IMG/VR virus record: IMGVR_UViG_2740892427_000001
Origin: a virus
Lineage: Duplodnaviria; Heunggongvirae; Uroviricota; Caudoviricetes
Strand: one strand, 5' to 3'
Length of the DNA stretch: 64,000 nucleotides
The notes under the pieces: model-generated
Told to the model about the DNA's origin: nothing
Seen by the model: the letters and a program-made list of their open reading frames with translations, nothing else
The model's database searches: none
Translations under genes and position numbers: made by a program
Part shown: positions 16,648 through 48,519 of the stretch, piece by piece
Position numbering within the stretch: the stretch's first letter is position 1
How the letters are laid out: every line of letters starts with the position of its first letter

Positions 16648-18963
16648 TCAGATTTTGCAGGCTCCGTCGCACTCATCTTCTGGCTCGACGGCTACAGCTT
16701 GCGTCAGTGGATTCTGCGGTTCGTCGTCATCACGCTTTCCTGCCCCATCTCTGGTGTTGTGGTAGTAAAGCGTTTTAACTCCCATCTTGTAGGCGAGAAG
16801 CAAATCTGACAGTAGCGTCATCATTGGGACTTTATCGCCTTCAAAGCGAGAAGGGTCATAGTTGGTATTGGCTGAAATAGCCTGGTCAAAGAACTTCTGG
16901 ATGATCGCCACCTTTGTCAGATAGCCGCGGTTGTCCGGCATATCCCACAGGTATTCATACTGTTCCTTCAGTTTTTCAAACTCAGGCACGACCATCTTAA
17001 CGATGCCGTCCTTAGAAGATTTCACCGACACCGGGCCACGAGGCGGTTCGATGCCGTTGGTGGAATTAGTGATCTGGCTGGAAGTCTCGCATGGCATTTG
17101 TGCCGTCAGTGTGGAGTTGCGAAGGCCGTATTTTGCAATACGTTCACGCAGTTCTTCCCACGGCATCTTTAACTCAAAGTTGGTTTCGCCACTTTCGTCT
17201 AATGAAGAACGGTAATGGTCGATCGGCAACTGACCAATTGCGTACTTGGTCTGCTCAAACCAGTCACACTCACCTTTTGCTTCAGCAAGTCGGCAGCTGG
17301 CGTCAAGAAGGTAATACTGGATAGCTTCGAACGTTTCATGCACCAGTTTATTGCCAGCGGTATCAGAATAACGAACGCCATTCTTTGCCAGGTAATAAGC
17401 AAAGTTGGTTACACCAATTCCCAGGCTACGACGAGCTTTGGCAGGCACTTCGGCTGCCTCCATCGGATAGTCTTGATAATCCAGTAACGAATCCAGTGCA
17501 GCAACGGCATAGAACGCCACCTCTTTAAGAGACTCCAGTGAACGGATGGCTCCGAGGTTAAAAGCGGATAAAGTGCATAGCGCGATCTCACCGTTCGGGT
17601 CGTCGGTAAATGCCAGTGGACGGGTGGGTAGAGTGATCTCCATGCACAGGTTTGACTGGCGAACAGGTGCAAGAGCAGGAATGAAAGCGCCATGCTCGTT
17701 AATATGATCGACGTTCGCAATATAAATTCGGCCCGTGGACGCTCGTTCCTGCATCAGAGATGAGAACAGCTCAATGGCAGGTACTGACTTCTTGCGAATT
17801 GAATCATCGGCTTCGTATTTATGGTACAGCTTTTCAAACAGATCCTGGTCTGTGAAGAAGGCTTCGTACATATCAGGCACATCATGCGGGCTGAACAGAG
17901 TGATGTTCTCGCTTCTGACGAGTCGACGGTACATTAGACGGTTACTCATGACGCCGTAATCAAGATGGCGAACGCGGTTTTCATCAATACCACGGTTATT
18001 TTTCACCACCAGCAGACTTTCAACCTCAAGATGCCAAATCGGGTAAAACGCTGTTGCTGCGCCACCACGAACACCACCTTGCGAACAAGATTTAACAGCC
18101 GTCTGGAAATGCTTCAGGAATGGAATAACTCCGGTATGGGTGGCTTCACCATTGCGGATCTCGCTGCCCAGCGCACGGATACGGCCAAAACCAATACCAA
18201 TTCCAGCACGACGTGAAACGTAGTCGATAATTGCGGCTGAAGCTGCACTAATCCCTTTCAGACTATCGCCAGACTCAATCAGCACACAACTGGAGAACTG
18301 ACGGGTTGGAGTACGGACGCCGGCCATGATTGGTGTGGGCAGAGACAGTTTGAACGTACTTGTAACGTCATAGAAACCTTTGACCATCTCCATACGTGTT
18401 TTGCCAGCGCAGTCGTCTTCCCAATTCTGGAACAGACACATGCCTACCAGCATATAGATATGTTGCGGCCCCTCATGAATCTCACCAGTAACACGGTTTT
18501 GAACGAGGTATTTGCTTTGCAACTGCACCGTAGCTGCATAGCCAAAAAGATCGTCACGTTTAGGCTTAATGTAATTGCCGAGTTCTTCGATCTCTTCAAA
18601 TGAATAATGTGTCAGCAAATCCTTGTCATAAACGCCCTTGTTAACGTTCTTGACAATGTGTTGGTGGAAGTTCGGATAGTCGTAACGACCGAAGGCATCT
18701 TTGCGGATTTTAAAAATGTTCAGGCGGGCAGCCACCTGCGAGTAATTTGGTGCATCTGGTGAGATCAAATCAGCGGCAGATTTAACCAAAGCCTCATGCA
18801 ACTGGCTGGTGGTAATCCCATCAAAAATGCTGGCCGCAGCTCCCATTGCTACAGCGGATGCGCTTACACCACGAATGCCTTCTACGCCATACATTACGAC
18901 GCGGTTGTATTTTTCTTCGGATAACGGCTCTGTTTGGCCGTTACGTTTTACGATGCTTATCAT
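16648..18963 (-). CDS. nrdA: ribonucleotide reductase class Ia alpha subunit
   Basis: 771 aa; LVQNRVTGEI, PTRQFSSCVLIE, SNLCMEI, C-terminal ...CDGACKI. Confidence 0.95.
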   Translation of the reverse strand: MISIVKRNGQTEPLSEEKYNRVVMYGVEGIRGVSASAVAMGAAASIFDGITTSQLHEALVKSAADLISPDAPNYSQVAARLNIFKIRKDAFGRYDYPNFHQHIVKNVNKGVYDKDLLTHYSFEEIEELGNYIKPKRDDLFGYAATVQLQSKYLVQNRVTGEIHEGPQHIYMLVGMCLFQNWEDDCAGKTRMEMVKGFYDVTSTFKLSLPTPIMAGVRTPTRQFSSCVLIESGDSLKGISAASAAIIDYVSRRAGIGIGFGRIRALGSEIRNGEATHTGVIPFLKHFQTAVKSCSQGGVRGGAATAFYPIWHLEVESLLVVKNNRGIDENRVRHLDYGVMSNRLMYRRLVRSENITLFSPHDVPDMYEAFFTDQDLFEKLYHKYEADDSIRKKSVPAIELFSSLMQERASTGRIYIANVDHINEHGAFIPALAPVRQSNLCMEITLPTRPLAFTDDPNGEIALCTLSAFNLGAIRSLESLKEVAFYAVAALDSLLDYQDYPMEAAEVPAKARRSLGIGVTNFAYYLAKNGVRYSDTAGNKLVHETFEAIQYYLLDASCRLAEAKGECDWFEQTKYAIGQLPIDHYRSSLDESGETNFELKMPWEELRERIAKYGLRNSTLTAQMPCETSSQITNSTNGIEPPRGPVSVKSSKDGIVKMVVPEFEKLKEQYEYLWDMPDNRGYLTKVAIIQKFFDQAISANTNYDPSRFEGDKVPMMTLLSDLLLAYKMGVKTLYYHNTRDGAGKRDDDEPQNPLTQAVAVEPEDECDGACKI

Positions 18964-30525: not shown

Positions 30526-32865
30526 TTACTCTTCTACTGACTCGGTGGGGTTGTCTTTTGCTCTTCGGTCGTCGATTGCCTGCAAAGCCGCAATGATTTC
30601 AGCCAGTGGCTTCTCCCGATACATCTCGACGATCTGCGATTTGGTGTATTTCTTGTCACCAATTTCAACTCGCCCGCTGGCGTTCTTTGGCAGGTATCCT
30701 TCTTCCAGCATGTACTCGACGAGCGATTCGATAACGTCGAGGCCACGAGTAGGATCGAAGTAGAATTTCCAGGTGCATTTGCCATACGGTGGTGCAACTT
30801 TGTTTTTGATGCATTCTGCGCCTACGTCCTGGCCGATCTTCTCTTTACCATCCTTCATCACCGATGCACCAAGACGGATACGTACAGAAGCGTAGAACTT
30901 CGGTGAATCGCCGCCTGGTGACGTAGTAGGGTCGCCAAACATTACACCGATTTTTGTGCGAACCTGATTCAAGAAGATGATGCAGGCGTTGTATTTGCGT
31001 GCCCACAAAGCCAGAGTAGGGAAGTTCGCACTCGTCGCACGAGCCAGTGCCGTATTGTCGTTCATGTTTAGCTGATCTTTGTCTTTGGCAGTGCCTTCAG
31101 CCATCTTTTCGAACTTCTCGGCTTTGGAGTTCGGAACCATAGACGCAAGAGAGTCAGCCACGATACAGATAGGTGCTGATTCGGGGATAAGCTCTTCATC
31201 ACGAACCAATTTAAGTATTGTGCCGATCAACTCTACAGAGTCTTCGAAGGTATCTGGCTGCTTGTATACCCACTGACCGTCATCCTCATCTGCGTTCAGG
31301 CCATTGGCTACAGCCAGGCCAACGTCAAAACTGTTTTCATGATCGAGGAATACCGCCAGACCATCTTGTTTTTGAGCGGAGATCATCGCTGCTGTTGCAA
31401 GGAATGTGTTGTGGCTGATAATCCCGTTAGACCAGAAAGAGTGTGTTTCCGGCATCGCTACGTCGAACGTTGGTGCTTCACCTTCCTCAATAGCCACGAC
31501 TTCGTCGTAGAACAAGTTAGAGCCAATTACCGCTGCCAGTTGTGCAAACAGATGCTCGTTAAAACGATTCTTTCTGCCAATGAAGGAGACATAGATTTCT
31601 CGCAGTTTGTCTATTCCGACACGATCGCCGCGGCCAATAACGTGGTCTACCAGAGCGTAGTCTTCACGGGTGGTCTTGGTGAGCGACTCGTAGAGTGATT
31701 TCACTAAGCCGCTGATGTGCGGAACATAGCCTGAGTAAGTGCGGTCAAAACCAATGTCCCGTTTGGTTGCCACTGATAAACGTGCCGGAGATTCGAAACC
31801 AATCGTTGACAGAAAAAGGTCGTAATTAGAGCCACTGAATGACAGCCGGTAATATGTATTTTCATAACCCGCGACGTGTTTTTCAGAGATAGTTGACGTA
31901 ATCCCCAGATTCAGGAGCATGAGGCGAATTTGCTGTAGCAGCAGCCCACTCGCGCTCACAACCTCAATGCAGCGACCATCATTGACGTGGCATTCCAGCT
32001 CAAAGTAGCCGCGAAGGAATGCAATTTGAGCCTCGCTATTGGCGCGACGCACACTCAACGGAACCTGCTTGCCAGCATCTTTCTCATACTCCAGACCATA
32101 TTCTTTAAAAAGCAGCGAACGCACCTCTTTGCTAAACAGCACATGGTCTTCCGAGCCGTTATGTTTTCTCGTAACTGGCATCTTGTCTGATACCAGCGAA
32201 ATGAGGCGGTAGTACTCATCCTTGATGAAAGGATCTGTGTTAGAAAAATTCACTGAATTTTCAGAGGCCACGTATCCGTCAGCAATTAAATAGCCCATCA
32301 GTTTTGCGATATTGGCATCCAGGTGCTGATCGCCGAATTGATGTGTGCCAACCATTGAAGGAATCGTGTCGCCTACACTGATTTTTTCAGCATGTCGCCA
32401 GACGACATTACCTAAGTCGTCAACCACACGGATTGGGTGACGGAACGTAGCCTCGATATAACCGCCTGATGCCAGCTTAATACGCTTGAATTTGCGACGG
32501 TTGTTCCATGTCAGGTGTGAGGTCTTCTCTATCACGCCATTTTCATTGATGAGTCCAACGTTATGCTCTACATCGCGAGTAGTGCATGTCGCTTTGTACC
32601 CTTCAATCTCAAACAACTCTTTCACTGTTACCATTCCACGCTCCGTCAGCAGCATGGTGTCTGCGGTAACACATTTCCCCGCGCTTGGTGGCCCGAATAC
32701 TTCGACGATACGACCACATGGGAAGCCGCCATCGTAACGACCAGAAATAGCTTTGTTTAACGGTGGAAAGCCTGTATCAATCCAATGAGTTACTTTCTGA
32801 ATTTCGTCGTTGCTACCGATTTTCTTTTTCAGAGCAAGTGCCAGTGCGGATTTTCCTTTTGCCAT
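30526..32865 (-). CDS. recA: RecA/UvsX-like recombinase precursor containing an intein
   Basis: exteins GRIVEVFGPPSAGK / TFLATAAMISAQ...IIFLNQVRTKIGVMFGDP...KFYASVRIRLG match the RecA core; 422-aa insert in the P-loop. Confidence 0.9.
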   Translation of the reverse strand: MAKGKSALALALKKKIGSNDEIQKVTHWIDTGFPPLNKAISGRYDGGFPCGRIVEVFGPPSAGKCVTADTMLLTERGMVTVKELFEIEGYKATCTTRDVEHNVGLINENGVIEKTSHLTWNNRRKFKRIKLASGGYIEATFRHPIRVVDDLGNVVWRHAEKISVGDTIPSMVGTHQFGDQHLDANIAKLMGYLIADGYVASENSVNFSNTDPFIKDEYYRLISLVSDKMPVTRKHNGSEDHVLFSKEVRSLLFKEYGLEYEKDAGKQVPLSVRRANSEAQIAFLRGYFELECHVNDGRCIEVVSASGLLLQQIRLMLLNLGITSTISEKHVAGYENTYYRLSFSGSNYDLFLSTIGFESPARLSVATKRDIGFDRTYSGYVPHISGLVKSLYESLTKTTREDYALVDHVIGRGDRVGIDKLREIYVSFIGRKNRFNEHLFAQLAAVIGSNLFYDEVVAIEEGEAPTFDVAMPETHSFWSNGIISHNTFLATAAMISAQKQDGLAVFLDHENSFDVGLAVANGLNADEDDGQWVYKQPDTFEDSVELIGTILKLVRDEELIPESAPICIVADSLASMVPNSKAEKFEKMAEGTAKDKDQLNMNDNTALARATSANFPTLALWARKYNACIIFLNQVRTKIGVMFGDPTTSPGGDSPKFYASVRIRLGASVMKDGKEKIGQDVGAECIKNKVAPPYGKCTWKFYFDPTRGLDVIESLVEYMLEEGYLPKNASGRVEIGDKKYTKSQIVEMYREKPLAEIIAALQAIDDRRAKDNPTESVEE
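31408..32673 (-). mobile_element. intein with LAGLIDADG homing-endonuclease domain, inserted in the recA Walker A motif
   Basis: starts Cys (CVTADTMLL), TxxH block ATFRHP, LMGYLIADGYV and FLRGYFELECHV, ends ...NGIISHN followed by Thr+1. Confidence 0.8.
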
Positions 32866-35953: not shown

Positions 35954-35970
35954 ACTATTATCGGAGGCGA

Positions 35971-36195
35971 ATGAAGCAACATCCGAATAAGCATATTCAA
36001 GCAGCCATTGACTATGCATTAAGTAAAGGCTGGATCTGGGTAGCAGCTGGTGGTGCTGCACATTGTTTTTGCAGACTGCGATGCGGTAATCCAGAAGGTG
36101 AACACAAAACTCACCAAATGAGCGTATGGTCGACTCCGGGTAATCCCGAAAACCATGCCAAACAGATCAAACGAATGGTTGATCGTTGTAAATGA
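35971..36195 (+). CDS. small basic Cys/His-containing protein (74 aa); HicA-like resemblance is weak
   Basis: ORF with strong promoter and RBS; followed by terminator hairpin 36200-36221. Confidence 0.5.
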   Translation: MKQHPNKHIQAAIDYALSKGWIWVAAGGAAHCFCRLRCGNPEGEHKTHQMSVWSTPGNPENHAKQIKRMVDRCK

Positions 36196-36199
36196 TTTC

Positions 36200-36221
36200 A
36201 AGGCGGCATTAGCCGCCTTTT
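36200..36221 (+). terminator. rho-independent terminator AAGGCGGCattaGCCGCCTTTT
   Basis: GC stem plus T-run. Confidence 0.65.
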
Positions 36222-36255
36222 GCAGAAACTGTCCAACTATCTTCAAAGGAAAACT

Positions 36256-36819
36256 ATGGCGCTTTATAACTTCACTCTGACGCTCTCAGGCGTATCGTAT
36301 GAGACGGAAGGACTGGAAGACGCGCTGTACCAAAACGGCTGTGACGATGCGCTAATTTGCGCATATGGAAACTCCGTCTATGTAGAATTTGACCGCGAAG
36401 CACAATCACTTGATGCAGCTATCGCATCTGCGGTCGACAATATTGAATCAGCCGGTATCGGTGCAATTGTTGAATCCGTCGACTCGGCTCTTGTGGGCTT
36501 AAGCGATATCGCGGAACTGACAGACCTGTCTCGCCAGGCAGTGGCGTTGCTCAAAGACGGTAAGCGCGGAAGCGGCGACTTCCCTTGCCCTGTACAACGC
36601 ATAAAAGGCCAGTCTCCTCTCTGGGATTGGGCTGATGTGGCTGAATGGCTCATGAATAACGGACGACTTAAAGAGGGCGATCAAATTGTCCAAAATGCCC
36701 GAACTTTGAGTAAATGGAATCTGGCGCTTCGAAACAGCGTCTCGAAAGATTTCAACGAAATAGAGCAAATTGCGGAGAAACTGATTAAACGCCGCAAAGA
36801 TATTGCGAAATGCGCATAA
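36256..36819 (+). CDS. hypothetical protein with internal HTH-like segment (188 aa)
   Basis: start set to ATG 36256 (AAGGAAAACT-ATG); LTDLSRQAVALLKDGKRG helix-turn-helix-like. Confidence 0.5.
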   Translation: MALYNFTLTLSGVSYETEGLEDALYQNGCDDALICAYGNSVYVEFDREAQSLDAAIASAVDNIESAGIGAIVESVDSALVGLSDIAELTDLSRQAVALLKDGKRGSGDFPCPVQRIKGQSPLWDWADVAEWLMNNGRLKEGDQIVQNARTLSKWNLALRNSVSKDFNEIEQIAEKLIKRRKDIAKCA

Positions 36820-36820
36820 T

Positions 36821-37667: not shown

Positions 37668-40600
37668 TTACTTATTTATTGTCTCCGCGATATCAGCCAG
37701 AATGGCCTCCAGTCGCTCTCCTTCTTCCGGTCGGAAGTACAGGATATTCGGGTTAAATCCGTAGAAGACGGTTGCATCAAGCTCTGGGAAGTACTCCTTA
37801 CGACCAATCAGATCTGATGGTTTACTCTTATTGTTAAATAGTGCGGTTGAACGACTACCACACGTCAAAATGTAGGTTGGTCGTACAAGATTAATTTCTT
37901 CCCGCATAAAGTCTGTGAACTGGCCTATCTCGTCTTTGGTATAGTCTTTCTCTTTGTCCTTAACCTTCTTACAAACACCCGTGACATAAAGATCGCCCAT
38001 GCGCAGATCTCCAACTGTCAGTAGTTTTGCCTTAAAGTCGTCGTATCCGTTCTCCATGAAGTAGCCGGTACGAGCGTCATTGCCGTTCGCATTGTCCAGA
38101 ATGATCATGATTTTGGGTTTAATACCAATAGTCGGGCGTATCAACTCCTCACCCAAGCCCATTTCAGCCGCCATACGTGTCATGAGTACGTTGATTTCGG
38201 CAGAACGCTTAGGATTCATTTCGAACGGACGTGATGCTTTAACAGCGTCAATGATGAGATTGCCCATCAGCTCAGCCTGGTCGCGCAGTCGTTCAGGATC
38301 AGTTGCTGGCAGACTGCCTGGCTCAATTGACGCAAAAGCCCCTACTTTATGAAGCGACTCGCGTACACGACTGTTACATGCACGCTTCTCGACCGCTTCA
38401 TCGAATTGTGCCACTGACTCGAATTTGCCACCAACTTTCTCACGCGCACGCATAATTGCCTGACAACCATTTTCAGAACAGCCTTTCACAGCAGAGAATG
38501 GCGCATACAGTGCCTGACTGCCGTCTTCGAGTGTGCGGATCTCAATTCGGTTAGATGACACATTAACGTCTGGTGGCAATACGCGAATGCCATAGGTCAG
38601 CGCATCCTTCACCAGCCCCTGATGCTTATCCTCGCCCAGAATGGTGAGCGCAGCTGCGAAGAACTCAGCAGGGTAGTGCGTCTTTAGCCACATAGACTGA
38701 TAACTGATTAAAGAATAAGCAACACTGTGTGATTTGTTGAAGGCATATCCACCGAACTTCTCAAAGGCGTCCCATATTTCTTGGGCTTTTTCCTTACTGA
38801 GACCTTCTTGTTCAGAGACGATCTCCACGTAGTCTATGCCGTCACTAATAGCCTCGCTGTAGCTTCTACGCTTACCGTCTGAGCAATCCAGTTTTGCGTG
38901 TTTGTGAACCTCTACAGTACCTCCATTTTTGAGTGACAGTGTCACCCAGCCTGCTTGTGCTCGTTCTACAAAATCGCTGCCGATCGCTTTCATCTTATCC
39001 ATGTTCTTTTTACCGATAGCGGAACGCAGAGCGTCTGCTTCGGCCATAGAGAACCCGGCAAGTACTCGGGAACTTTGCATGATTTGTTCCTGATAGAGCA
39101 AAACACCATTAGTCTCCCGGGTGACTTCCTCAAGACGCGGATGAATTGAATGTGGAGCCATGAAGCCTTTGGCCACGGAGACATAGTCGTCCAACATGCC
39201 GGATTGGATCGGGCCTGGTCGGAAGAGTGCGGTCGTGGCGACAACGGTCTTGAAGCTCATTGGCTCGATGCCACCGCCCAGATCTTTAAGCAACTTACGC
39301 ATGGGGCCGGACTCCAGCTGGAATACGCCCTGCGTGTACCCTGCAGCGAACCCATCCAGAACCTTGCGATCGTCCAGTGGGATAGCGTCGAGATTGATGT
39401 CTTCCCCGGTACTCTCTTTGATGTAGCGTTTCGCGCTATCCAGAAGATCGAGCGTTGCCAGGCCAAGCACGTCCAGCTTAATTAGGCCCATAGCCTCGCA
39501 GTAACGCTTGTCAAATGCGATACAACGCGCGTCACCACGGCGCTCAACCGGTGTACGTTCTGTCAGAGGAACACCTGCTACGATCATCCCTGCCGCATGT
39601 CTACCAAAGCCACGCATAAGGCTTTGTAACTTGCAGGCTGCATTGAATGCATCAGGATATTTTGTTGCGTATTTGTCGAGACTTGCCAGTTGTTCGCGCA
39701 GCTCTTCCAATGGAAGGCTATCATCCTCGACGTTCTTCAGTTCTTTTGATACCGCCATATCTGCGGACTCCACACCATAAATACGAGCGGTGTCACGTAG
39801 TGCAGATGCCGCGCCCAGATAGGTGAAGTTCGGAATGCCTGCAACGTAATCTTCGCCGTAGCGTTCATTCAGATACTCGATCACCTCATGGCGACGTGCC
39901 TGGCTGAAGTCCAAGTCCGCATCCGGCAAGTCGAGACGCTCAGGGTTGATGAAACGCTCAAACAGAAGACCGTGACGGATTGGGTCGACGTTGGTTATGC
40001 CTATGCACCACGCCACCAGAGAACCGGCAGAGGAACCACGACCAGGCCCGACAGGAATGCCAGTTTCACGGCTGTGATTCATCAGATCGCGTACCATCAG
40101 GAAGTAACCACAGAATCCCAGGCGAGTCAGCGTGTCCATTTCGTACTTTAGCCGCTCAACATAAACCCTGTTCTCAGAAGCAGGTGGTGTGTATCCAAAC
40201 TCTTTTGTGGTAAGACGTTTACGCAGCCCTGCAACAGCCAGTTTCATCAGCGTTGCAGGTTCGTCGTCTGCCATCTTGGGCAGTGCTGGTGGCAATTCAT
40301 GCCAGCGCCATGTGCAGGCATCGATAATGGAGTCCTGCGTTGTTGAGGCCATTGCAGCTGTTACCGGCACATCCATGCGAACGGAGAAGGCTTTAAGCGC
40401 CTCAAGGAGATGGCGACGACCATTGATGGCGTTATCTCGCTGGTGGGGGATACGCAGACGATGCGGCTGGTCGATTTTTATGTTGTTCGTAACCATGTGC
40501 GCAATGTCTTTAATGTCTGCATCGTCGATCGATTCGTAATAAGCGGGATAGAACGCCACTGGCTCTATTTTCAATGCGCTGGCTACTTTCATCGCTCGGA

Positions 40601-41174
40601 CGTTAATCTGGTCGTAGAATGGGGTAGGGTGCGGATAAACCACGCTATAGAAGTTGTCTTTCCCGCCCGCTGTAATCAGTGAGCTTATGATTTTTGCAAA
40701 ATCGTTGCGTTGGAACACGCTACCGATGTCGGAAGTGAGCAGGATGATGTTGCCTTTGGCATATGTAGAAACCAACTGTTCGAGCGAGAGACGCGGTACA
40801 AAGTAGAACTGTTCTCGTGTGTTGGCCACCGTCATTAGTTCGCAGATGTCGCGATATCCTTTCTCATTTTTAATTAGAGCGGTAAACGAGTAGTTACGTC
40901 CTCGCTCCAATGATTCCATACATCCCTTAGACTCTTTAGCAAGTTTAGCCCGGTGCTCGTATGTGGGATCATCAACGATGTTTAGTTTCACACCACAAAT
41001 AACCGCCATGTCGTCACCAGCGGCACGTTGTAGTGGAATAACGCTCGCAATATTCATGCTATCTGCTGAAATTACAGCGGTGTAGCCAGCTTCTCTGGCA
41101 ATCTTCACCGCGTTTTCTGCTTTTAGAGCCGACTCCCCAAGTGAGAAGTCAGTTCGAACCATCAGTGCTTTCAT
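37668..41174 (-). CDS. dnaE: DNA polymerase III alpha-type catalytic subunit (DnaE family)
   Basis: 1168 aa; N-terminal PHP-domain-like region, central GPGRGSSAGSLVAWCIGIT and PDxD motifs; length close to bacterial DnaE. Confidence 0.9.
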   Translation of the reverse strand: MKALMVRTDFSLGESALKAENAVKIAREAGYTAVISADSMNIASVIPLQRAAGDDMAVICGVKLNIVDDPTYEHRAKLAKESKGCMESLERGRNYSFTALIKNEKGYRDICELMTVANTREQFYFVPRLSLEQLVSTYAKGNIILLTSDIGSVFQRNDFAKIISSLITAGGKDNFYSVVYPHPTPFYDQINVRAMKVASALKIEPVAFYPAYYESIDDADIKDIAHMVTNNIKIDQPHRLRIPHQRDNAINGRRHLLEALKAFSVRMDVPVTAAMASTTQDSIIDACTWRWHELPPALPKMADDEPATLMKLAVAGLRKRLTTKEFGYTPPASENRVYVERLKYEMDTLTRLGFCGYFLMVRDLMNHSRETGIPVGPGRGSSAGSLVAWCIGITNVDPIRHGLLFERFINPERLDLPDADLDFSQARRHEVIEYLNERYGEDYVAGIPNFTYLGAASALRDTARIYGVESADMAVSKELKNVEDDSLPLEELREQLASLDKYATKYPDAFNAACKLQSLMRGFGRHAAGMIVAGVPLTERTPVERRGDARCIAFDKRYCEAMGLIKLDVLGLATLDLLDSAKRYIKESTGEDINLDAIPLDDRKVLDGFAAGYTQGVFQLESGPMRKLLKDLGGGIEPMSFKTVVATTALFRPGPIQSGMLDDYVSVAKGFMAPHSIHPRLEEVTRETNGVLLYQEQIMQSSRVLAGFSMAEADALRSAIGKKNMDKMKAIGSDFVERAQAGWVTLSLKNGGTVEVHKHAKLDCSDGKRRSYSEAISDGIDYVEIVSEQEGLSKEKAQEIWDAFEKFGGYAFNKSHSVAYSLISYQSMWLKTHYPAEFFAAALTILGEDKHQGLVKDALTYGIRVLPPDVNVSSNRIEIRTLEDGSQALYAPFSAVKGCSENGCQAIMRAREKVGGKFESVAQFDEAVEKRACNSRVRESLHKVGAFASIEPGSLPATDPERLRDQAELMGNLIIDAVKASRPFEMNPKRSAEINVLMTRMAAEMGLGEELIRPTIGIKPKIMIILDNANGNDARTGYFMENGYDDFKAKLLTVGDLRMGDLYVTGVCKKVKDKEKDYTKDEIGQFTDFMREEINLVRPTYILTCGSRSTALFNNKSKPSDLIGRKEYFPELDATVFYGFNPNILYFRPEEGERLEAILADIAETINK

Positions 41175-41358
41175 GTGTTTTTACCTTTATGGTTTTTTTG
41201 ATTTTGTCATTGGGGAAGCCTACGAACTTCCCATACATCGAAATCGCAACTTCTTTTGCTGATTGGTGACAATCGGTCTTGTCTGGACATACCAGACAAG
41301 CCTTACCAGTTTCAGAAGCAGCGATAAGAGAGCCGAAACATCCTTTACGCACGATCAA
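41149..41358 (-). CDS. small Cys-containing hypothetical protein (69 aa), TTG start
   Basis: ORF overlapping the dnaE start; weak. Confidence 0.2.
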   Translation of the reverse strand: MIVRKGCFGSLIAASETGKACLVCPDKTDCHQSAKEVAISMYGKFVGFPNDKIKKTIKVKTHESTDGSN

Positions 41359-42590
41359 CCAAATATTTTTTGAACAACTTCACGAGCCGCTTGTGCAGAA
41401 GCTGAAGGGAGTTTGTTAATGAAAGAACGCTCAATACCTGTCACAAAGTCGCCTCGCATCATTCCAATCTTGGCCGACAACAAAAGTTCACGAGGGCCAA
41501 TTGGCTGACTGATAAGGTGTTCTTCGTATCCATCGCGAACGATACCGGCAAACTTAACCATCTTTTCTGCGTATTCATCCACGATACCGGCATTTATCAA
41601 CATGTTGATCTCTGCCTCTTTGCTCATGTATTTCACATTCGAAACGATGCCAAAACGCGAAAAGTTCGCGGCGTTCTGGATGTTTGTACCCTGGTACAAG
41701 CCGGTTTCATCACCAGATCCGTTCGTGTTGCCAGTGCCAATGAAAGCAAACCGTTCATGCGGAGTAATGCGACGCCATTCTGGAGTCGCCTCTTTGATGA
41801 CCAACGCTTCACCTTCCAGCACTGGCTGATACACGCCAAGAATCTGTGGAAACGCAAAGTCGTATTCATCCGCGAGGTAAACCCAGCCATGCTTCATTGC
41901 GAGCGCAAGCAAGCCAGGCTCGAAATACGTAGAGCCATCACGCGCCAGAATTTGCCCCGTAACATGTGCCTCTTCCATTGATGCTGTATGTTGGGCACGG
42001 ATCAACGGACGATTGAGCAAAGCACATAGTTGTGTAGGCAATGACGATTTGCCTGTTCCTGCATGACCCCACAAATAGCCAGGTATGCCAAGTTCAAGCA
42101 TCATGAAAATGTCTTTGATCAGTTCGAAGTCGCCATATACGTAGCCCTTCTTCACTTCTGGAACGAACTCTGGAAACGGCGTATTGACGTTGACGCTAAC
42201 CATGAGCGGCGTCCCACGTTTTGTTCCGAGTTCTTTCACCGTTACATTTAGCAGTTCGTGAGCTGCGACCAGATCTGTCTTGTACTCAACTGTGCCTGTG
42301 TAGCCTGGGCTACTGGTCACGCCAGATGATTTGGCCATTTCGCTTTTTTGCTCGGCACGTTTAGCTTGAATTGCATCAAGTGCCTTTTTCGATAGCGTTG
42401 GCTCATCTGGAAACTGTGTTGTGTACATTTTCAGTACGGTGTCAGGATCGGCATCTTTTACTGACTCAGGAATGCCCTCGCAATTACCATTGGCTACATG
42501 GGACTTAAAATAGTGAAATGATTTTCCGCACCACTTGCAAACAAGGTAATCAGAAGGATTTTTTTCATTTTGCAGTGCAGTAGTAGTCAT
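41355..42590 (-). CDS. AAA+ ATPase, MoxR/CobS-like
   Basis: Walker A GHAGTGKSS, Walker B VYLADEYDF; N-terminal Cys/His cluster. Confidence 0.7.
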   Translation of the reverse strand: MTTTALQNEKNPSDYLVCKWCGKSFHYFKSHVANGNCEGIPESVKDADPDTVLKMYTTQFPDEPTLSKKALDAIQAKRAEQKSEMAKSSGVTSSPGYTGTVEYKTDLVAAHELLNVTVKELGTKRGTPLMVSVNVNTPFPEFVPEVKKGYVYGDFELIKDIFMMLELGIPGYLWGHAGTGKSSLPTQLCALLNRPLIRAQHTASMEEAHVTGQILARDGSTYFEPGLLALAMKHGWVYLADEYDFAFPQILGVYQPVLEGEALVIKEATPEWRRITPHERFAFIGTGNTNGSGDETGLYQGTNIQNAANFSRFGIVSNVKYMSKEAEINMLINAGIVDEYAEKMVKFAGIVRDGYEEHLISQPIGPRELLLSAKIGMMRGDFVTGIERSFINKLPSASAQAAREVVQKIFG

Positions 42591-42685
42591 GCGTTTTTCC
42601 TTTGTTTTCTAATGAGCGTTCAACTTCTTATATAAATATATCATTATCTATCGTAAGTGGTTACTTATCGTTAAGGCTGTTTTGT

Positions 42686-44794
42686 TCACTTTAAAATGAT
42701 ACGAGATAGTTCAGTAACTACAGATGAACCAAGACTATCAACGCTCGTTACCAGGGCATGATTTGAGTAAAATCTCTCCGGTGCGTCAGTCATGATGCCA
42801 ATTGCCATCAAATCAATGTCAGTCTGCGTTTCAATTTGCTTCGCAACCGAACGCAAATGAGCGTCAAAACCTCTCCCAACAGCCCACGGCTCGCCATCGC
42901 TCAGAACAAGCATGATCTTCCTGTCCTCCATGCGACCGGAAAATAACGATGCAAGGCTGGCTATGCTTTCACCATCCACGTTATTAAGAAGTGGGAATGT
43001 GTAGCCTACGCACCCCATACGTGAGCGAACTTCGCGAGAATTTACCTTTTCATTCCAATTTTTGATGATAGGTAGCATTAAAGATTCAAAGCGAGAGAAC
43101 TCATACTTGACAGCCTTAAGTTCTCCTGCCGCCATATGACTACCAAATGTAGTGAAGCCGGTGATAATGTTGGGAACATTTATTCGATCAAGGGCATCGG
43201 CGATGGTATATGCACTTGCAAGAGCCAATTGTATCGTTATACCCCTCATTGAACCTGATAAATCAATCACTTGTTGAACACAGGCGTTAACGGCTTTAGA
43301 TTCTTCTTTTTTACGAAACACGCGATCATCATTCATTGCTAATCTGTAGATACTAGAACCATGAATGCGCCCCCGACGCTGGCCCGGTATAAACTGAACT
43401 CTGTTTCTGCTTGCTATTGCTCGCTCCAGGTCTTTTGCCAGCGTCGACGAAACACCTGACGAAAGATGCTTTTCAATATATTTGTCGAAGAGCTGGTTGC
43501 CTTCAGGAACGATGCGATAGCGGCTGATTGGACATCCTCCTAAATCAATATCGGAGAATGTTTTAATAAGCCGTTTGATATGGGCTTCTGCCTGATCAAT
43601 CGAGCCGATGAAGTCGTATGAGCGATTGTATGGCCTGTATTCGCTTTTCGAGCTTTCTGTTAACTCGCTTTTAATCGTTTCGGATAGAGCATCTTCTGTC
43701 ATGCCTCCGACTTCATCTTCTATGCTATCCAGCTCCTCTAAAGCCTCTTCCAGACTCATTTTTGACGGAGTTGGGATATCTGAAGAGCCGTCTTCTGTCG
43801 TTTTTCTTTTTTCGTGGTCAGCGGTTAATGATTCTGACGCCGCGTTATCAGAAGCATCAGAATCTGATACCTCTTTATCATTTTCTGTATCATCGAATAT
43901 TGTTTCTGATGATTCAGAATTATCTGAATCATCACTGTTGTTATTATCATGTTTGTGCTTACTATGTGATTCTGATTTGATAGATTTGTGATTATCTAAC
44001 AATGAAGGTGTCTCATGATCTTCGTTGTCTTCATTGTTTTCTCCAGAGGCATCCGTCTGGTCAGCGTCAGAAGGATCGGAAGTTTTTCCCGGAGCTGACT
44101 CCTTACCTTTGCTTTCACTTTCAGTGTCTTTGAGGATCTTAGCTATGGTCGCAGCCACCTTTACACAATCCTCGGTGCAAGACATGTTACGCACGGCCAC
44201 ATCGATACCATGTTCTTTTAATAATGAAATTGGTTTCTCAATGACAGGCCAGTATTCATCCATGAAATCTACGAACGGTGCTTGGCCATCCCAGGCTCTT
44301 ACAACCGGACAGAGAAAGAAGTTTAGAAAAAGCGCGCGCTGATCTTTGCCACAATAAGCAATAGCCTCTGAAGCCTTTGGTTTAAAGACTTTTTCGATTA
44401 TAAGGCGCTGAGTTGCCATCAGATTACGTCTTGTTCCGTTAAAGACCTGACCCATTTTTCGCTCGATGAACACGTCTTCTAAGGCATTCCATAGCGACCA
44501 GGAAGGAACGCGTCCTTTTTCTCTCATTTTGTTGGACACACGAATATCGGTAAACAAAATGTGAGCAACCTCATGATCGAGAAATCCGCGCACAGCATTC
44601 ATCAATGCCGGTGTTGCGTTATCCGGGATTGATGGGATGTTTACGAGAATTGGCTCTCCATCATCGTTATAGCGTACATAAGCGTCGTCCCCTCGTTCTG
44701 CAACAGGGATGTTTTTACCTGAAAGGAGAGCGACTACTCGTTTTACACTGTCACGGAAGTCCTGAACCTCTTTGATGGAACGTTTTTTAGACAT
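42686..44794 (-). CDS. vWA-domain protein (CobT-like partner) with long acidic Ser/Asp-rich insert
   Basis: C-terminal MIDAS motif VIDLSGSM; ~170-aa low-complexity acidic region in the middle. Confidence 0.65.
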   Translation of the reverse strand: MSKKRSIKEVQDFRDSVKRVVALLSGKNIPVAERGDDAYVRYNDDGEPILVNIPSIPDNATPALMNAVRGFLDHEVAHILFTDIRVSNKMREKGRVPSWSLWNALEDVFIERKMGQVFNGTRRNLMATQRLIIEKVFKPKASEAIAYCGKDQRALFLNFFLCPVVRAWDGQAPFVDFMDEYWPVIEKPISLLKEHGIDVAVRNMSCTEDCVKVAATIAKILKDTESESKGKESAPGKTSDPSDADQTDASGENNEDNEDHETPSLLDNHKSIKSESHSKHKHDNNNSDDSDNSESSETIFDDTENDKEVSDSDASDNAASESLTADHEKRKTTEDGSSDIPTPSKMSLEEALEELDSIEDEVGGMTEDALSETIKSELTESSKSEYRPYNRSYDFIGSIDQAEAHIKRLIKTFSDIDLGGCPISRYRIVPEGNQLFDKYIEKHLSSGVSSTLAKDLERAIASRNRVQFIPGQRRGRIHGSSIYRLAMNDDRVFRKKEESKAVNACVQQVIDLSGSMRGITIQLALASAYTIADALDRINVPNIITGFTTFGSHMAAGELKAVKYEFSRFESLMLPIIKNWNEKVNSREVRSRMGCVGYTFPLLNNVDGESIASLASLFSGRMEDRKIMLVLSDGEPWAVGRGFDAHLRSVAKQIETQTDIDLMAIGIMTDAPERFYSNHALVTSVDSLGSSVVTELSRIILK

Positions 44795-44892
44795 GGCTAA
44801 TCCTTTGTTATGAAAACAAATTATTTACTAGTGTGTTTAATGTAGCACTGCGCGAACAGGGAACTAAGCCATTCGCGCAGGGAGAAGAGGGG

Positions 44893-45105
44893 TTAACAGA
44901 TTCTGACGGCTAAAGACCCGGAGCCGGTATTGAGAAGCGTGAAGCGTTTGTTGTTAAGTTCGAATATAAATCCAGTTGTGTCATTCACACCAACCTGAAT
45001 CTGCTCATTCGGTAGATCGGTGAGGATGTCAGCTACACACTCATCAACTAATTTCTGTACGTGTCCGATCTCAAGAGCGATTAGGCTGGAAATAGTGGTG
45101 TTCAT
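44893..45105 (-). CDS. hypothetical protein (70 aa)
   Basis: ORF divergent from the HTH regulator gene. Confidence 0.35.
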   Translation of the reverse strand: MNTTISSLIALEIGHVQKLVDECVADILTDLPNEQIQVGVNDTTGFIFELNNKRFTLLNTGSGSLAVRIC

Positions 45106-45282
45106 TCAATCAGTCCATTCTAACTTATACTATGGTAAGGAATACTACTAAAATTTGTATCAATACTGAATACATTCATATCATATGCAAGTTGATTTTC
45201 TTACCTATTTTTGGCTAATTTTTCTCCGTGCAATGGCCTTTAACCGGTCTTTTAAGTGCCTATCGAAAAAAATGATAATAGC

Positions 45283-45328
45283 TTTACAACCCTAACCTTT
45301 GATGTAATATCGGTAAGCACTTACCAGA
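45283..45328 (+). promoter_or_regulatory. sigma70-like promoter TTTACA-16 bp-TAATAT overlapped by the palindrome ATCGGTAAGCACTTACCAGA
   Basis: -35 at 45283-45288, -10 at 45305-45310, palindrome at 45309-45328, ATG 45357. Confidence 0.5.
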
Positions 45329-45356
45329 GAGAATTGAACGCGCAAAGGTTGTAACC

Positions 45357-45743
45357 ATGTCTGATAACAAGATTGAATTTATAGAAAGTCGCTACGCTGC
45401 TTTTATCGCAGGGTTGATTGAATCCTCACCTATGAGCCAGGCCCAGATAGCCAAAACAATTGGGTATAAAAACGCCAACAACCTTTCTTTAATTAAAAGC
45501 GGCAAAATTCCTTTGCCTATCGATAAGGTTCGTCCGCTGGCGCTGGCACTGGGTATTGAGCCAAGTCGTCTTATGATGATGGTGCTGGAAGAACGCCAAC
45601 CCGAACTCGCAGCATTTTTATACAAAGAAGGCACTGCTCCTCTTAACGAGGACGAAAAACAGGTTCTTGCTGCATATAACGAGCGATTCGGTAAAGAGAA
45701 AGGCGCATCACAAAAGGTTGTTGAGGCCATAAAGTCTCTATGA
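45357..45743 (+). CDS. HTH-domain transcriptional regulator (XRE/Cro-cI-like)
   Basis: SQAQIAKTIGYKNANNLSLIKSGK helix-turn-helix. Confidence 0.6.
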   Translation: MSDNKIEFIESRYAAFIAGLIESSPMSQAQIAKTIGYKNANNLSLIKSGKIPLPIDKVRPLALALGIEPSRLMMMVLEERQPELAAFLYKEGTAPLNEDEKQVLAAYNERFGKEKGASQKVVEAIKSL

Positions 45744-46841
45744 AAAATTTACACGAATAAGCTCTGTTGATAGACGATCTCCCTTAAATTTGTGGTCAAT
45801 TTCGTCTAAATCCGGTTGCTCTACGATTGATGCGATGTACGTCGAGAAACTTTCTAAGGCGTCTCGCATCTCGTCCATATAATCGTGCCGGTCGTAGACC
45901 CGATCTATCCCCTCAAGACTGTGGTTCATGATTTTACGTGATACCTCCTGGCTTATGCCTAATGCTGGGAAGTAACTACGCGCAGTACGGCGCAAATCTC
46001 GGGGTGTAAATGGCTCAAGCTCCATCAGTTCTGGTCGTTCCAGAATACGACGTAATGCCTGGGCTATTGCCACTTTAGACATAGGAAGGTCTTTCCCGAT
46101 TTTTTTATTCGAAGGCACGAGCCACTGGCTGTCTTTACCATATTCGAACAACTCTTCAATACAAGTGCGCATTAATGAGCTTAAAGGCAGAGAATGCTCA
46201 CGGGCAGATTTGTTCCTCTTGCCTTGATTCCAAACCCCACGCTTAAGATTGAACTCACTTTTTTTAGCCCGCAGTACTTCGTCAGGTCGTCTTGCGGATA
46301 CAAGACATAGCCTGGCCGCCCATTTTGTACCAGCACACACATTGAAGTAGTCCCATATATTCCAGAACACCCATACCTCTGCGTCGGTCAGCTTCCGCTC
46401 GCGAGGTGTGGGCTTTGCGCCACCGGCAACTTTGTTAAGTGACATATCGTTTAACGGTGACACGTCTATCATCCCCTGGAAGGCGCACCAGCTAAGGAAC
46501 TGCTTCATCAGAGAGAAAACGCGGCGACCCATAACAATTTTGCCATCCAGTATTAGTGGGTTGACCAGTTGGTTCACCATGAACCTATTAATGTCACTTA
46601 CTTTTACATCGGCAATGTGCGGCAAAACATGTATCAAAATACAATGAACAGCGATCTCTGGCCGACGTCTGGTTATCAGCAGAGATAAGCGAGTGAATAA
46701 CATGAATGCGTCCGAGAATCTCATGTCATTGCTGACCTGGGAGATCGTAACGGCCTGCATTTGAGATGCTCTTTCGAGATACTCTATCGCCTCTTTTGAG
46801 GTGTTCTCCGCAGCGCGTGCTCTGTCAAAGCTATTTTTCAT
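45738..46841 (-). CDS. tyrosine recombinase / integrase family protein
   Basis: C-terminal catalytic region TPRDLRRTARS...NHSLEGIDRVYDRHDY (R...HxxR...Y pattern). Confidence 0.75.
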   Translation of the reverse strand: MKNSFDRARAAENTSKEAIEYLERASQMQAVTISQVSNDMRFSDAFMLFTRLSLLITRRRPEIAVHCILIHVLPHIADVKVSDINRFMVNQLVNPLILDGKIVMGRRVFSLMKQFLSWCAFQGMIDVSPLNDMSLNKVAGGAKPTPRERKLTDAEVWVFWNIWDYFNVCAGTKWAARLCLVSARRPDEVLRAKKSEFNLKRGVWNQGKRNKSAREHSLPLSSLMRTCIEELFEYGKDSQWLVPSNKKIGKDLPMSKVAIAQALRRILERPELMELEPFTPRDLRRTARSYFPALGISQEVSRKIMNHSLEGIDRVYDRHDYMDEMRDALESFSTYIASIVEQPDLDEIDHKFKGDRLSTELIRVNFS

Positions 46842-47865: not shown

Positions 47866-47952
47866 TGGCGGAGAGTAATGGAATCGAACCATCATCGCTT
47901 GCGCAATGGGACGGTTTTCAAGACCGCTTGAGCACCATGCTCCCTACTCTCC
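47866..47952 (-). tRNA. tRNA-Ser (anticodon UGA), class II with long variable arm, encoded CCA
   Basis: manual fold: acceptor GGAGAGT/ACTCTCC, anticodon loop CUUGAAA, T-loop GGTTCGATTCC. Confidence 0.7.
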
Positions 47953-48050
47953 AGCTATTGTGATGGTCGGTGCTGAACTCCGACACAGGGTTGTAGCAAG
48001 CCCCGCAAAGCGCGCACTACTGTAGTTGCGGCACATCAGCCTGTGCATTC

Positions 48051-48133
48051 ATCACAACGGTAAGATCACTACCTTTCGACCAGTCATTGTGCACATGAAC
48101 GACGATTAACCGTAATGATCTTATCGTTGTGTT
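48051..48133 (-). other. imperfect long stem-loop in tRNA spacer
   Basis: arms atcacaacggtaagatcact / aatgatcttatcgttgtg. Confidence 0.35.
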
Positions 48134-48180
48134 GTGAAGCCAGATGCTTATCTTCTGGTTGCTTCAAAGAGCTGCACTTC

Positions 48181-48271
48181 CTCACAACGGTAAGAGCACT
48201 GGTCTGACTCTATCGATTTACGGGCTTGTGGGTCAGTATCGCCGATTCGCCCAATGCTCTTACCTGTTGTG
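48181..48271 (-). other. imperfect long stem-loop immediately 3' of tRNA-Thr
   Basis: arms ctcacaacggtaagagcactgg / ccaatgctcttacctgttgtg. Confidence 0.4.
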
Positions 48272-48272
48272 T

Positions 48273-48348
48273 TGGTGCCGGTTAACGGGATCGAACCGCT
48301 GACATCCTGCTTACAAGGCAGACGCTCTACCAACTGAGCTAAACCGGC
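48273..48348 (-). tRNA. tRNA-Thr (anticodon UGU), encoded CCA
   Basis: GCCGGTTTAGCTCAGTTGGTAGAGC...CUUGUAA...GGTTCGATCCCGTTAACCGGCACCA. Confidence 0.8.
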
Positions 48349-48352
48349 AATT

Positions 48353-48439
48353 TGGTGGGGAGTGATGGAGTCGAACCACCCGAGTCGCAATGACAGTAGA
48401 TTTACAGTCTACCCCGCTGCCCCTACGGACTAACTCCCC
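48353..48439 (-). tRNA. tRNA-Tyr (anticodon GUA), long variable arm, encoded CCA
   Basis: anticodon arm GTAGACTGTAAATCTAC, T-loop GGTTCGACTCC, acceptor GGGGAGT/ACTCCCC. Confidence 0.8.
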
Positions 48440-48444
48440 TAAAT

Positions 48445-48519
48445 TGGCGATGGTGGGTGGATTCGAACCACCGACCAGTTGGTTAACAGCCAACTGCTCT
48501 ACCGCTGAGCTACACCATC
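48445..48519 (-). tRNA. tRNA-Asn (anticodon GUU), encoded CCA
   Basis: GATGGTGTAGCTCAGCGGTAGAGC...GTTGGCTGTTAACCAAC...GGTTCGAATCCACC. Confidence 0.8.

Follow-up and report, generated by a model that had tools for sequence, protein, structure and literature searches.

The AAA+ ATPase CobS and its adaptor CobT form the motor of the aerobic cobaltochelatase (EC 6.6.1.2), whose structures have been solved (PDB 9uka, 9ujv and 21vt; bioRxiv 10.64898/2026.07.21.739949). In the solved complex the CobT shaft enters the pore of the CobS ring on nucleotide binding and is gripped by the H2-insert hairpin of CobS; the crystallized N-terminal domain of CobT is described as M48C-like, the linker of ~90 residues is disordered and invisible in every structure, and the text of the preprint mentions neither zinc nor phages. 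Viral cobS and cobT genes have been labelled B12 "auxiliary metabolic genes" for about two decades (as a cyanophage core gene, in ICP2, and in haloarchaeal viruses), and the "peptidase" annotation of cyanophage cobT was called a mistake by Liu et al. 2021 (PMC8651126). Iyer et al. 2021 (PMC7824862) described, in T4-like jumbo phages of group 2.2, a MoxR ATPase adjoining a vWA protein whose N-terminal domain is a metallopeptidase, and predicted that this pair is a chaperone and co-chaperone with proteolytic processing, acting in virion assembly. Here we report on a CobT/CobS-like gene pair in a 64,000-nucleotide stretch of tailed-phage DNA (IMG/VR record IMGVR_UViG_2740892427_000001), the whole of which is referred to below as the window. 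Based on the findings that follow, the pair is probably a phage-type, ATP-driven remodelling and processing machine of the MoxR type, belonging to the early lytic/replication module and acting on a client other than CobN.

Domain architecture of the two proteins

The pair consists of two long open reading frames (ORFs) on the minus strand, 95 bp apart, of which the 702-residue CobT-like gene is transcribed first and the 411-residue CobS-like ATPase gene second (Table 1). An original prediction, made from the letters of the window alone, had proposed a CobS/CobT-like pair of a MoxR-class AAA+ ATPase and a vWA protein bearing a MIDAS (metal ion-dependent adhesion site). That core call was right, as Pfam, PHROG and PDB matches showed, and profile searches, the check suggested with it, gave E-values for the AAA+ and CobT families far beyond chance. 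The order of the genes had been given as ATPase first and 702-residue protein second; the real order is the reverse, and both genes lie on the minus strand.

Pfam identified CobT (aa 9-293, E 9e-27) and CobT_C (aa 492-701, E 4e-82) in the 702-residue protein, which also matched PHROG 1576 over aa 5-702 (E 5.6e-301) and, through a family profile, the solved CobT 9uka_G (E 2.3e-62). The 411-residue protein matched Pfam AAA_5 (E 2e-15), PHROG 249 over aa 11-410 (E 2e-106) and the solved CobS (E 1.8e-25). These full-length PHROG matches, from adjacent genes in a tailed-phage genome, place the pair in the viral cobST family, and an AAA_5-type ATPase adjoining a vWA protein whose MIDAS is complete identifies it as a MoxR-class AAA+/vWA pair.

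The N-terminal domain of the CobT-like protein, which had escaped the original prediction, contains the motif HEVAH (aa 74-78), followed ~30 residues later by NALEDVFIE. Residues H74, E75, H78, E106, D107, and E111 were invariant across 70 homologs of 28-61% identity. A profile scan with aa 1-225 over 1.84 billion representatives returned 1,125 clusters at E <=1e-3, nearly all with proteins of 600-860 aa. Among the 150 best representatives of 50%-identity clusters, 149 had HExxH at the same place, and the full-length ones had DxSGS. An AlphaFold model of aa 1-225, computed with 120 diverse sequences, had a mean predicted local distance difference test (pLDDT) score of 91.3 and consisted of a helix, a three-stranded sheet, and then further helices, with HExxH within helix 62-81 and E106, D107, and E111 within helix 99-117. 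The best fold matches of this domain were M48 peptidases, not ImmA/IrrE.

For comparison with the cellular enzyme, 79 chromosomal cobT genes, adjoining cobS in the order cobS then cobT, were extracted from alphaproteobacterial genomes. The 12 of these that were displayed had DSMALR or DSIALK and VEQARVE at the same columns: both histidines, the catalytic glutamate, and D107 are gone, with E-Q...E at the columns of E106, D107, and E111. The Roseobacter podophage CRP-810, on the other hand, keeps HEAGH, NALED, and DLSGSM. In these alignments the intact HExxH separates the phage type from the true cobaltochelatase CobT. Our reading of the sequences is that the phage-type CobT would be the version of the adaptor that keeps the zincin active-site residues, and the cellular chelatase adaptor a degenerate form of it.

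The C-terminal domain has both a shaft of the chelatase type and a complete MIDAS. In the shaft region G471 and G475 were invariant, and L482 and F493 nearly invariant, in the alignment of 70 homologs. The DLSGSM motif, which the original prediction had recognized as the C-terminal MIDAS, was located at aa 511-516 within the CobT_C match, and D511, S513, and S515 were likewise invariant. Together with N605 and D633, these residues align to D422, S424, S426, N518, and D546 of the CobT MIDAS.

In the ATPase, the predicted Walker A motif GHAGTGKSS was found at aa 175-183. Residues G175, G178, G180, K181, D241, E242, N288, R312, and R367 were invariant, chromosomal CobS included. Structurally the protein is closest to MoxR-family members, with CbbQ and NorQ as its nearest relatives; a role as a clamp loader was rejected on this basis, since the ATPase is of the MoxR class and not of the clamp-loader class. 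The first ~100 residues form an extension, also new relative to the original prediction, with a Cys2His2 knuckle whose four residues (C18, C21, H26, and H31) were each at least 90% conserved in 98 homologs. The knuckle, a putative zinc site, was modelled confidently as two short strands and a helix, followed by two helices, and the extension was absent from the chromosomal CobS compared. Relative to chromosomal CobS, the H2-insert hairpin of the phage-type ATPase is also shorter and its pre-sensor-1 insert longer.

The two domains of the CobT-like protein are joined by a low-complexity stretch of 164 residues (aa ~222-385) with 30% D+E, 27% S+T, and a net charge of -35. The original prediction had described a ~170-residue insert of near-pure Ser, Asp, Glu, and Asn. 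The acidic low-complexity region is indeed there, but these four residues account for 91 of the 164 (55%), the others including 14 K, 13 T, 9 A, 8 L, and 6 H, and the region is not an insert but an inter-domain linker found family-wide, the solved CobT included. The same acidic run was present in the extracted chromosomal CobT proteins. In 13 SSU5-like relatives (proteins of 684-790 aa) the linker was hypervariable in both sequence and length, while its flanks were near-invariant. By a uniform definition the linker of the window is 119 aa long (164 aa by composition), which is shorter than most of 120 SSU5-like proteins (median 160 aa); in 125 full-length cluster representatives the median was 129 aa (range 15-263), and the window ranked 57th. 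The length of chromosomal linkers was taken from the ~90 residues of the preprint and from reading one extracted sequence (L002), as a fixed-offset estimate (24 aa) failed. Tandem Repeats Finder detected only a 9-nt, 2.6-copy array (score 32) in the linker coding region, so slippage on DNA repeats does not explain the length polymorphism. The retention of an acidic, disordered composition while the sequence varies fits a role as a tether. The acidic region is thus real but ordinary for its family, being the native disordered linker of CobT proteins.

Table 1. Positions of the gene pair, its domains and motifs, and flanking genes in the window, together with sigma70_r2-like genes in three distant relatives.
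Feature	Position	Strand	Basis or remark
CobT-like adaptor gene, 702 aa	42686..44794	-	zincin-like N-domain, acidic linker, shaft and vWA/MIDAS C-domain
N-terminal domain, aa 1-221, zincin (M48-like) fold	44132..44794	-	model and fold matches
HEVAH (H74, E75, H78), candidate zinc-binding/catalytic motif	44561..44575	-	invariant in homologs
E106 D107 ... E111 on next helix, candidate third metal ligand	44462..44479	-	invariant columns
Acidic Ser/Thr-rich disordered linker, about aa 222-385	43640..44131	-	composition, variability in relatives
Shaft equivalent, aa 462-503	43286..43411	-	aligned to 9uka_G Q373-R413
MIDAS D511-x-S513-x-S515, completed by N605 and D633	43250..43264	-	alignment to CobT
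CobS-like MoxR-class AAA+ ATPase gene, 411 aa	41355..42590	-	Pfam AAA_5, PHROG 249, solved CobS
Phage-specific N-terminal extension of ATPase, aa 1-100	42291-42590	-	
C18-x2-C21-x4-H26-x4-H31 knuckle within the extension	42498..42539	-	
Walker A GHAGTGKSS, aa 175-183	42042..42068	-	
Walker B D241-E242	41865-41870	-	
70-aa ORF directly upstream of cobT-like gene; first gene after divergent repressor	44893..45105	-	PHROG 2627, E 2e-40
69-aa Cys-rich ORF between cobS-like gene and dnaE	41149..41358	-	PHROG 6337, E 2e-44
DnaE-type Pol III alpha	37668..41174	-	Pfam PHP, DNA_pol3_alpha, finger, HHH_6
Divergent helix-turn-helix (HTH) repressor	45357..45743	+	Pfam HTH_19; Cyrano "putative repressor"
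Integrase	45738..46841	-	Pfam Phage_integrase
Sigma70_r2-like gene, relative L165	10412-11158		
Sigma70_r2-like gene, relative L167	10360-11037		
Sigma70_r2-like gene, relative L163	10734-11378		

Position of the pair in the phage genome

Along the minus strand the gene order is integrase, (divergent repressor), 70-aa ORF, cobT-like, cobS-like, 69-aa ORF, dnaE, HicAB, UvsY, gp32, exonuclease, and RecA. Just upstream of the operon, the repressor and integrase mark a lysogeny switch. A small ORF, followed by cobT, cobS, one to three ORFs, and dnaE, was also found in three metagenomic lineages with CobT-like proteins of 27-32% identity to that of the window, as well as in Pseudomonas phage nickie and Rhizobium phage RHph_X66. 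A divergent HTH gene lay a short way upstream in four of these five distant loci, with an integrase as well in two of the five; an integrase/HTH arrangement as in the window was noted for L165, L167, and L163. The retention of the core order at such low identity, together with the upstream HTH gene, places the pair at the head of an early, replication-facing operon. DnaE is the conserved downstream neighbor in this arrangement, which does not imply its membership in the machine. The distant contexts came from annotated phages and contig look-ups, as scanning viral contigs with the family profile yielded mainly close relatives of the SSU5 type.

The small flanking ORFs were considered as further components and not counted, as their position is conserved but their sequence barely so (12-25% identity). 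An ORF of 60-75 aa precedes cobT in every distant relative examined, with weak sequence similarity. The 69-aa Cys-rich ORF has 25% identity to the N-terminus of a 180-aa nickie gene at the same position, with GCFG...C..C common to both. In three of the five distant relatives the slot between the cobS-like gene and dnaE holds a sigma70_r2-like gene of ~215-250 aa (Table 1).

The Cyrano repressor and several toxin-antitoxin genes are listed as expressed in the LF82 lysogen, and CYRAN_46-48 are not listed (PMC9928086). A role for the pair as lysogeny-expressed genes was rejected from this absence. A promoter and terminator scan of positions 41000-45800 gave counts no higher than in shuffled sequence (5 promoter-like signals against 8.2 expected, and 5 terminator-like against 4.5), and transcription signals were therefore left unassigned.

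Over 3,957 bases around the gene pair the window has 99.6% identity to Escherichia phage Cyrano, the SSU5-like phage-plasmid pLF82 from E. coli LF82 (PMC9928086), and SSU5 and Klebsiella relatives have 72-77% identity to this region; the window is an SSU5-like phage-plasmid. The allele (at least 95% nucleotide identity) was carried by 219 of 5,426 complete E. coli genomes, and each of its 228 E. coli copies was plasmid-borne, on plasmids of roughly 100-156 kb, under the RefSeq names "cobaltochelatase CobT-related protein" and "AAA family ATPase". Protein clusters 99-100% identical to both window proteins hold thousands of E. coli sequences, so the pair is already in the databases many times over, and it belongs to a known and very common viral family.

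The Cyrano record (OV696614.1) gives the products of CYRAN_47 and CYRAN_48 as "dimethylbenzimidazole phosphoribosyltransferase" and "cobalamin synthetase". These are the unrelated enzymes called CobT and CobS in Salmonella nomenclature, and Pfam gives only AAA_5, CobT, CobT_C, and a sub-threshold VWA match; the names are a collision and should not be passed on in annotation. Four tRNA genes (Ser-tga, Thr-tgt, Tyr-gta, and Asn-gtt) lie at 47866-48519 (-) of the window. The stretch of the Cyrano record that was examined annotates only Ser, Thr, and Asn tRNAs, at positions offset from a colinear mapping, and because the tRNA set and positions differ the window is a close relative of Cyrano and not the identical sequence.

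Several observations concern the other genes of the module. A HicA/HicB pair (CYRAN_50 and CYRAN_51) is inserted on the opposite strand, at ~35970-36820, between dnaE and UvsY/gp32, and both genes are among those expressed in the Cyrano lysogen (PMC9928086). The 779-aa RecA, at 30526-32865 (-), contains an intein that interrupts it and bears a homing-endonuclease domain of the LAGLIDADG type (Pfam RecA aa 484-703, Intein_splicing 73-486, and LAGLIDADG_3 279-356). The DnaE homologs of L165, L167, and L169 have a C-terminal uracil-DNA glycosylase (UDG)-like domain (Pfam PF03167). Neither a whole-protein Pfam scan of the window DnaE nor one of aa ~959-1168 alone detected a UDG domain, and its C-terminus (aa ~1012-1168) matches PHROG families only. 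In L167, an ENA contig of 255,940 bp, the module of integrase, repressor, cobT, cobS, and dnaE directly abuts host genes (RsmJ, a cation-efflux protein, UvrC, and a CDP-alcohol phosphatidyltransferase), which gives this relative the look of an integrated prophage. Integrated and plasmid lysogeny seem to alternate in the lineage, with the integrase retained.

Proposed role of the pair and alternatives to it

What the sequences show is homology, conserved motifs, a predicted fold, synteny, and a window that lacks CobN; from these we infer the mode of assembly, protease activity, timing of expression, and kind of client as follows. The CobS-like protein would form a MoxR-class AAA+ hexamer, by homology with the solved CobS-CobT complex, and the CobT-like protein would be its adaptor. 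The N-terminal domain of the adaptor would dock on the small subdomain of the ATPase, while its C-terminal domain would insert the conserved basic shaft (aa 462-503) into the ring pore and present the complete MIDAS site to a client protein. The polyacidic disordered linker would tether both domains so that the client can be held between them. ATP-driven remodelling of the MIDAS-bound client would be coupled to its cleavage or processing, the most likely mechanism in our view because the phage N-terminal domain keeps an intact HExxH...E motif. The machine would act on some phage or host protein that is not CobN, and at an early stage of the lytic cycle; the early timing is suggested by the pair heading the operon that extends from the lysogeny switch to dnaE and gp32.

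A more specific version of this proposal is offered as speculation, and we think it rather unlikely. The pair could be an ATP-powered, MIDAS-targeted zinc protease that traps a single specific client, either a phage protein of the replication module or a host factor, between its tethered domains and cleaves it soon after induction. In that case the cellular CobT would descend from this protease-adaptor, having lost catalysis and been recruited to hold CobN, and the linker would be a tether of tunable length, or possibly a mimic of nucleic acid, determining which client fits.

Several points weigh against the proposed remodelling and processing machine. The literature searched contained no experimental function for phage CobS or CobT. 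The conserved HExxH could bind a metal for a non-proteolytic purpose, and the chromosomal CobT set is a narrow one, of alphaproteobacterial proteins at least 85% identical to the PDB protein over the C-terminal domain. The synteny with dnaE may stem from shared ancestry within one phage lineage and not from a functional link, as the locus of CRP-810 illustrates, and the lack of lysogenic expression is deduced from a published table that does not list the genes and not from a time course.

Among the alternatives, an unlikely one is that the pair is a chaperone and protease of virion assembly, aiding head or tail assembly while the zincin processes structural proteins. This was the function proposed for the jumbo-phage pair, by analogy with a MoxR-vWA pair needed for tail development in Acidianus two-tailed virus (PMC7824862), and it fits the domain set found here. 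However, the pair lies outside the structural module and, after the repressor, starts an operon into dnaE, gp32, and recombination genes, in relatives of 27-32% identity as well, and no structural gene adjoins the pair in any locus examined.

About as unlikely, in our view, is a role in maturing or loading components of the replication module, in which the pair would activate or process the phage DnaE (which has a metal-binding PHP domain), the sigma-like factor, or some other protein of replication. The model here would be the maturation of metal centers by NorQ/NorD and CoxD/CoxE; CbbQ and NorQ, the closest structural relatives of the ATPase, remodel enzyme clients through a vWA partner. The linkage to dnaE is conserved across enterobacterial, Pseudomonas, Rhizobium, and metagenomic relatives. 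That synteny may nevertheless simply be inherited, and there is no direct evidence of interaction. CRP-810 has the pair, in the opposite order (cobS then cobT), with no dnaE nearby, and CobT_C relatives are present in ICP2-type Vibrio phages and Gordonia phages.

The early-operon position would suit a protease of host takeover or counter-defense, capturing a host protein through the MIDAS and inactivating it early in infection. A generic host-directed function is suggested by the broad spread of the family in unrelated phage types and hosts, and the hypervariable linker between invariant domains is in keeping with it. Yet the catalytic and binding domains are strongly conserved and not diversifying, no candidate target is known, and the PADLOC models of defense and anti-defense systems gave no match to a known system, the only hit being a weak one to DrmE (aa 340-469, E 0.0026) that overlaps the low-complexity linker. 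We consider this role quite unlikely.

The published hypothesis for the viral cobST cluster is that the genes are auxiliary metabolic genes whose products stand in for or add to the motor subunits of the host, take over its CobN, and raise cobalamin synthesis, for example for B12-dependent ribonucleotide reduction (PMC8651126; PMC3037004). In the ATPase, shaft, and vWA regions the homology to CobS and CobT is real, and many records annotate the pair as "porphyrin/cobalamin biosynthesis". Against this, the scores were far below the equivalog cut-offs of NCBIfam, at 84.8 bits for TIGR01650 (CobS; cut-off 558.55) and 67 bits for TIGR01651 (CobT; cut-off 759.05), a shortfall of about 7- to 11-fold, and the N-terminal domain keeps the peptidase motif that the true enzyme has lost. 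Pfam scans found no CobN-like ORF among the seven window ORFs of at least 500 aa (a tail fibre, the intein-containing RecA, a class I ribonucleotide reductase alpha, SbcC, a DUF4942 protein, DnaE, and the CobT-like protein), and no CobN-type gene is annotated in the stretches of Cyrano examined. The allele was found only on plasmids of E. coli, a host in which production of CBAD, which the cobalt chelatase makes, required heterologous cobN, cobS, and cobT (PMC6249242); this lack of CobN in the host is taken from the literature, not from a search of E. coli genomes. The genes are also missing from the list of those expressed in the lysogen.

The reductase, which has an ATP cone and lies at 16648-18963 (-), is accompanied in the Cyrano annotation by NrdB, a MazG-like protein, ThyX, dihydrofolate reductase, and polynucleotide kinase. 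The nucleotide-supply module of the phage is thus full and independent of B12, as class I ribonucleotide reductase, NrdB, and the thymidylate synthase ThyX do not use it. Together, the equivalog scores, the CobN results, and the reductase and ThyX indicate that hijacking of CobN by viral CobST does not fit an E. coli host, and we judge a metabolic role in B12 supply very unlikely here. The pair is almost certainly a relative of the cobaltochelatase motor that is not itself a cobaltochelatase and does not make B12. A magnesium chelatase (BchI/BchD or ChlI/ChlD) is likewise not indicated, as there was no match to a Mg-chelatase Pfam family and the N-terminal domain has a zincin fold, not an AAA+ fold.

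Most improbable of all is an ImmA/IrrE-like anti-repressor that cleaves the neighboring HTH repressor and so triggers induction: the zincin gene is about 560 bp from that divergent repressor, but it lies in an operon expected to be repressed by it and is not co-transcribed with it, nickie has the pair with no adjacent repressor annotated, the CobT_C relatives of ICP2-type phages occur in phages described as lytic (PMC3037004), and the fold of the domain points to M48 peptidases.

Three observations argue against the B12 label for this lineage: the pair is common in E. coli, which would be unable to make use of a cobaltochelatase motor, its adaptor keeps the metalloprotease motif that is lost from the true enzyme, and it is fixed in an early, replication-facing operon. 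What this study adds is the intact zincin motif, the putative zinc knuckle of the ATPase, the conserved early-operon position, and the arguments against a B12 role in E. coli. The function of the proposed remodelling and processing machine can be tested directly by standard genetics, because a copy sits on a plasmid-borne, inducible E. coli phage (Cyrano/pLF82 and SSU5), and the new CobSTN structures provide a template for the design of mutants.

Comparison with described systems

Within the viral cobST cluster, which includes SSU5, pHCM2-like phage-plasmids, Vibrio phage ICP2, and haloarchaeal tailed viruses, and also T4-like cyanophages according to PMC8651126, nothing of substance sets the window pair apart: it has the same adjacent genes, HExxH motif, acidic linker, and MIDAS. 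Gene order varies within the cluster, with cobT before cobS in the window and the ~105-120 kb siphophage lineage and cobS before cobT in CRP-810.

The aerobic cobaltochelatase proteins share with the phage pair an AAA+ core with all ATPase motifs and, in CobT, the same three-part plan of M48C-like N-terminal domain, disordered acidic linker, and shaft plus vWA domain with MIDAS. The differences are that the phage CobT has HExxH and D107 intact where chromosomal CobT has S-M-x-x-R and Q, that its linker is about 1.3-1.8 times longer, and that the phage ATPase has an extra N-terminal extension of ~100 aa with a Cys2His2 knuckle as well as altered inserts. In addition, the gene order in the window is reversed, a CobN partner was not found, and the equivalog scores were below cut-off.

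The MoxR-vWA enzyme activases CbbQ/CbbO and NorQ/NorD have vWA partners without a zincin domain, and their clients, Rubisco and nitric oxide reductase, are absent from this context. The best structural matches of the N-terminal domain are the M48 zinc metallopeptidases (Ste24/ZMPSTE24, BepA, and HtpX-like proteins), and the domain has HExxH on one helix and conserved Glu and Asp residues on the next.

The pair of MoxR and metallopeptidase-vWA proteins in jumbo phages has the same described architecture; the likeness is one of description, and identity of family is our inference from it. Its published function is in virion assembly, whereas the window pair lies within the early/replication module. 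In our reading, Iyer et al. and Liu et al. describe the same thing, and the present analysis reconciles the view that the peptidase annotation is a mistake with the jumbo-phage description of a MoxR ATPase and a metallopeptidase-vWA protein, a description that omits CobT.

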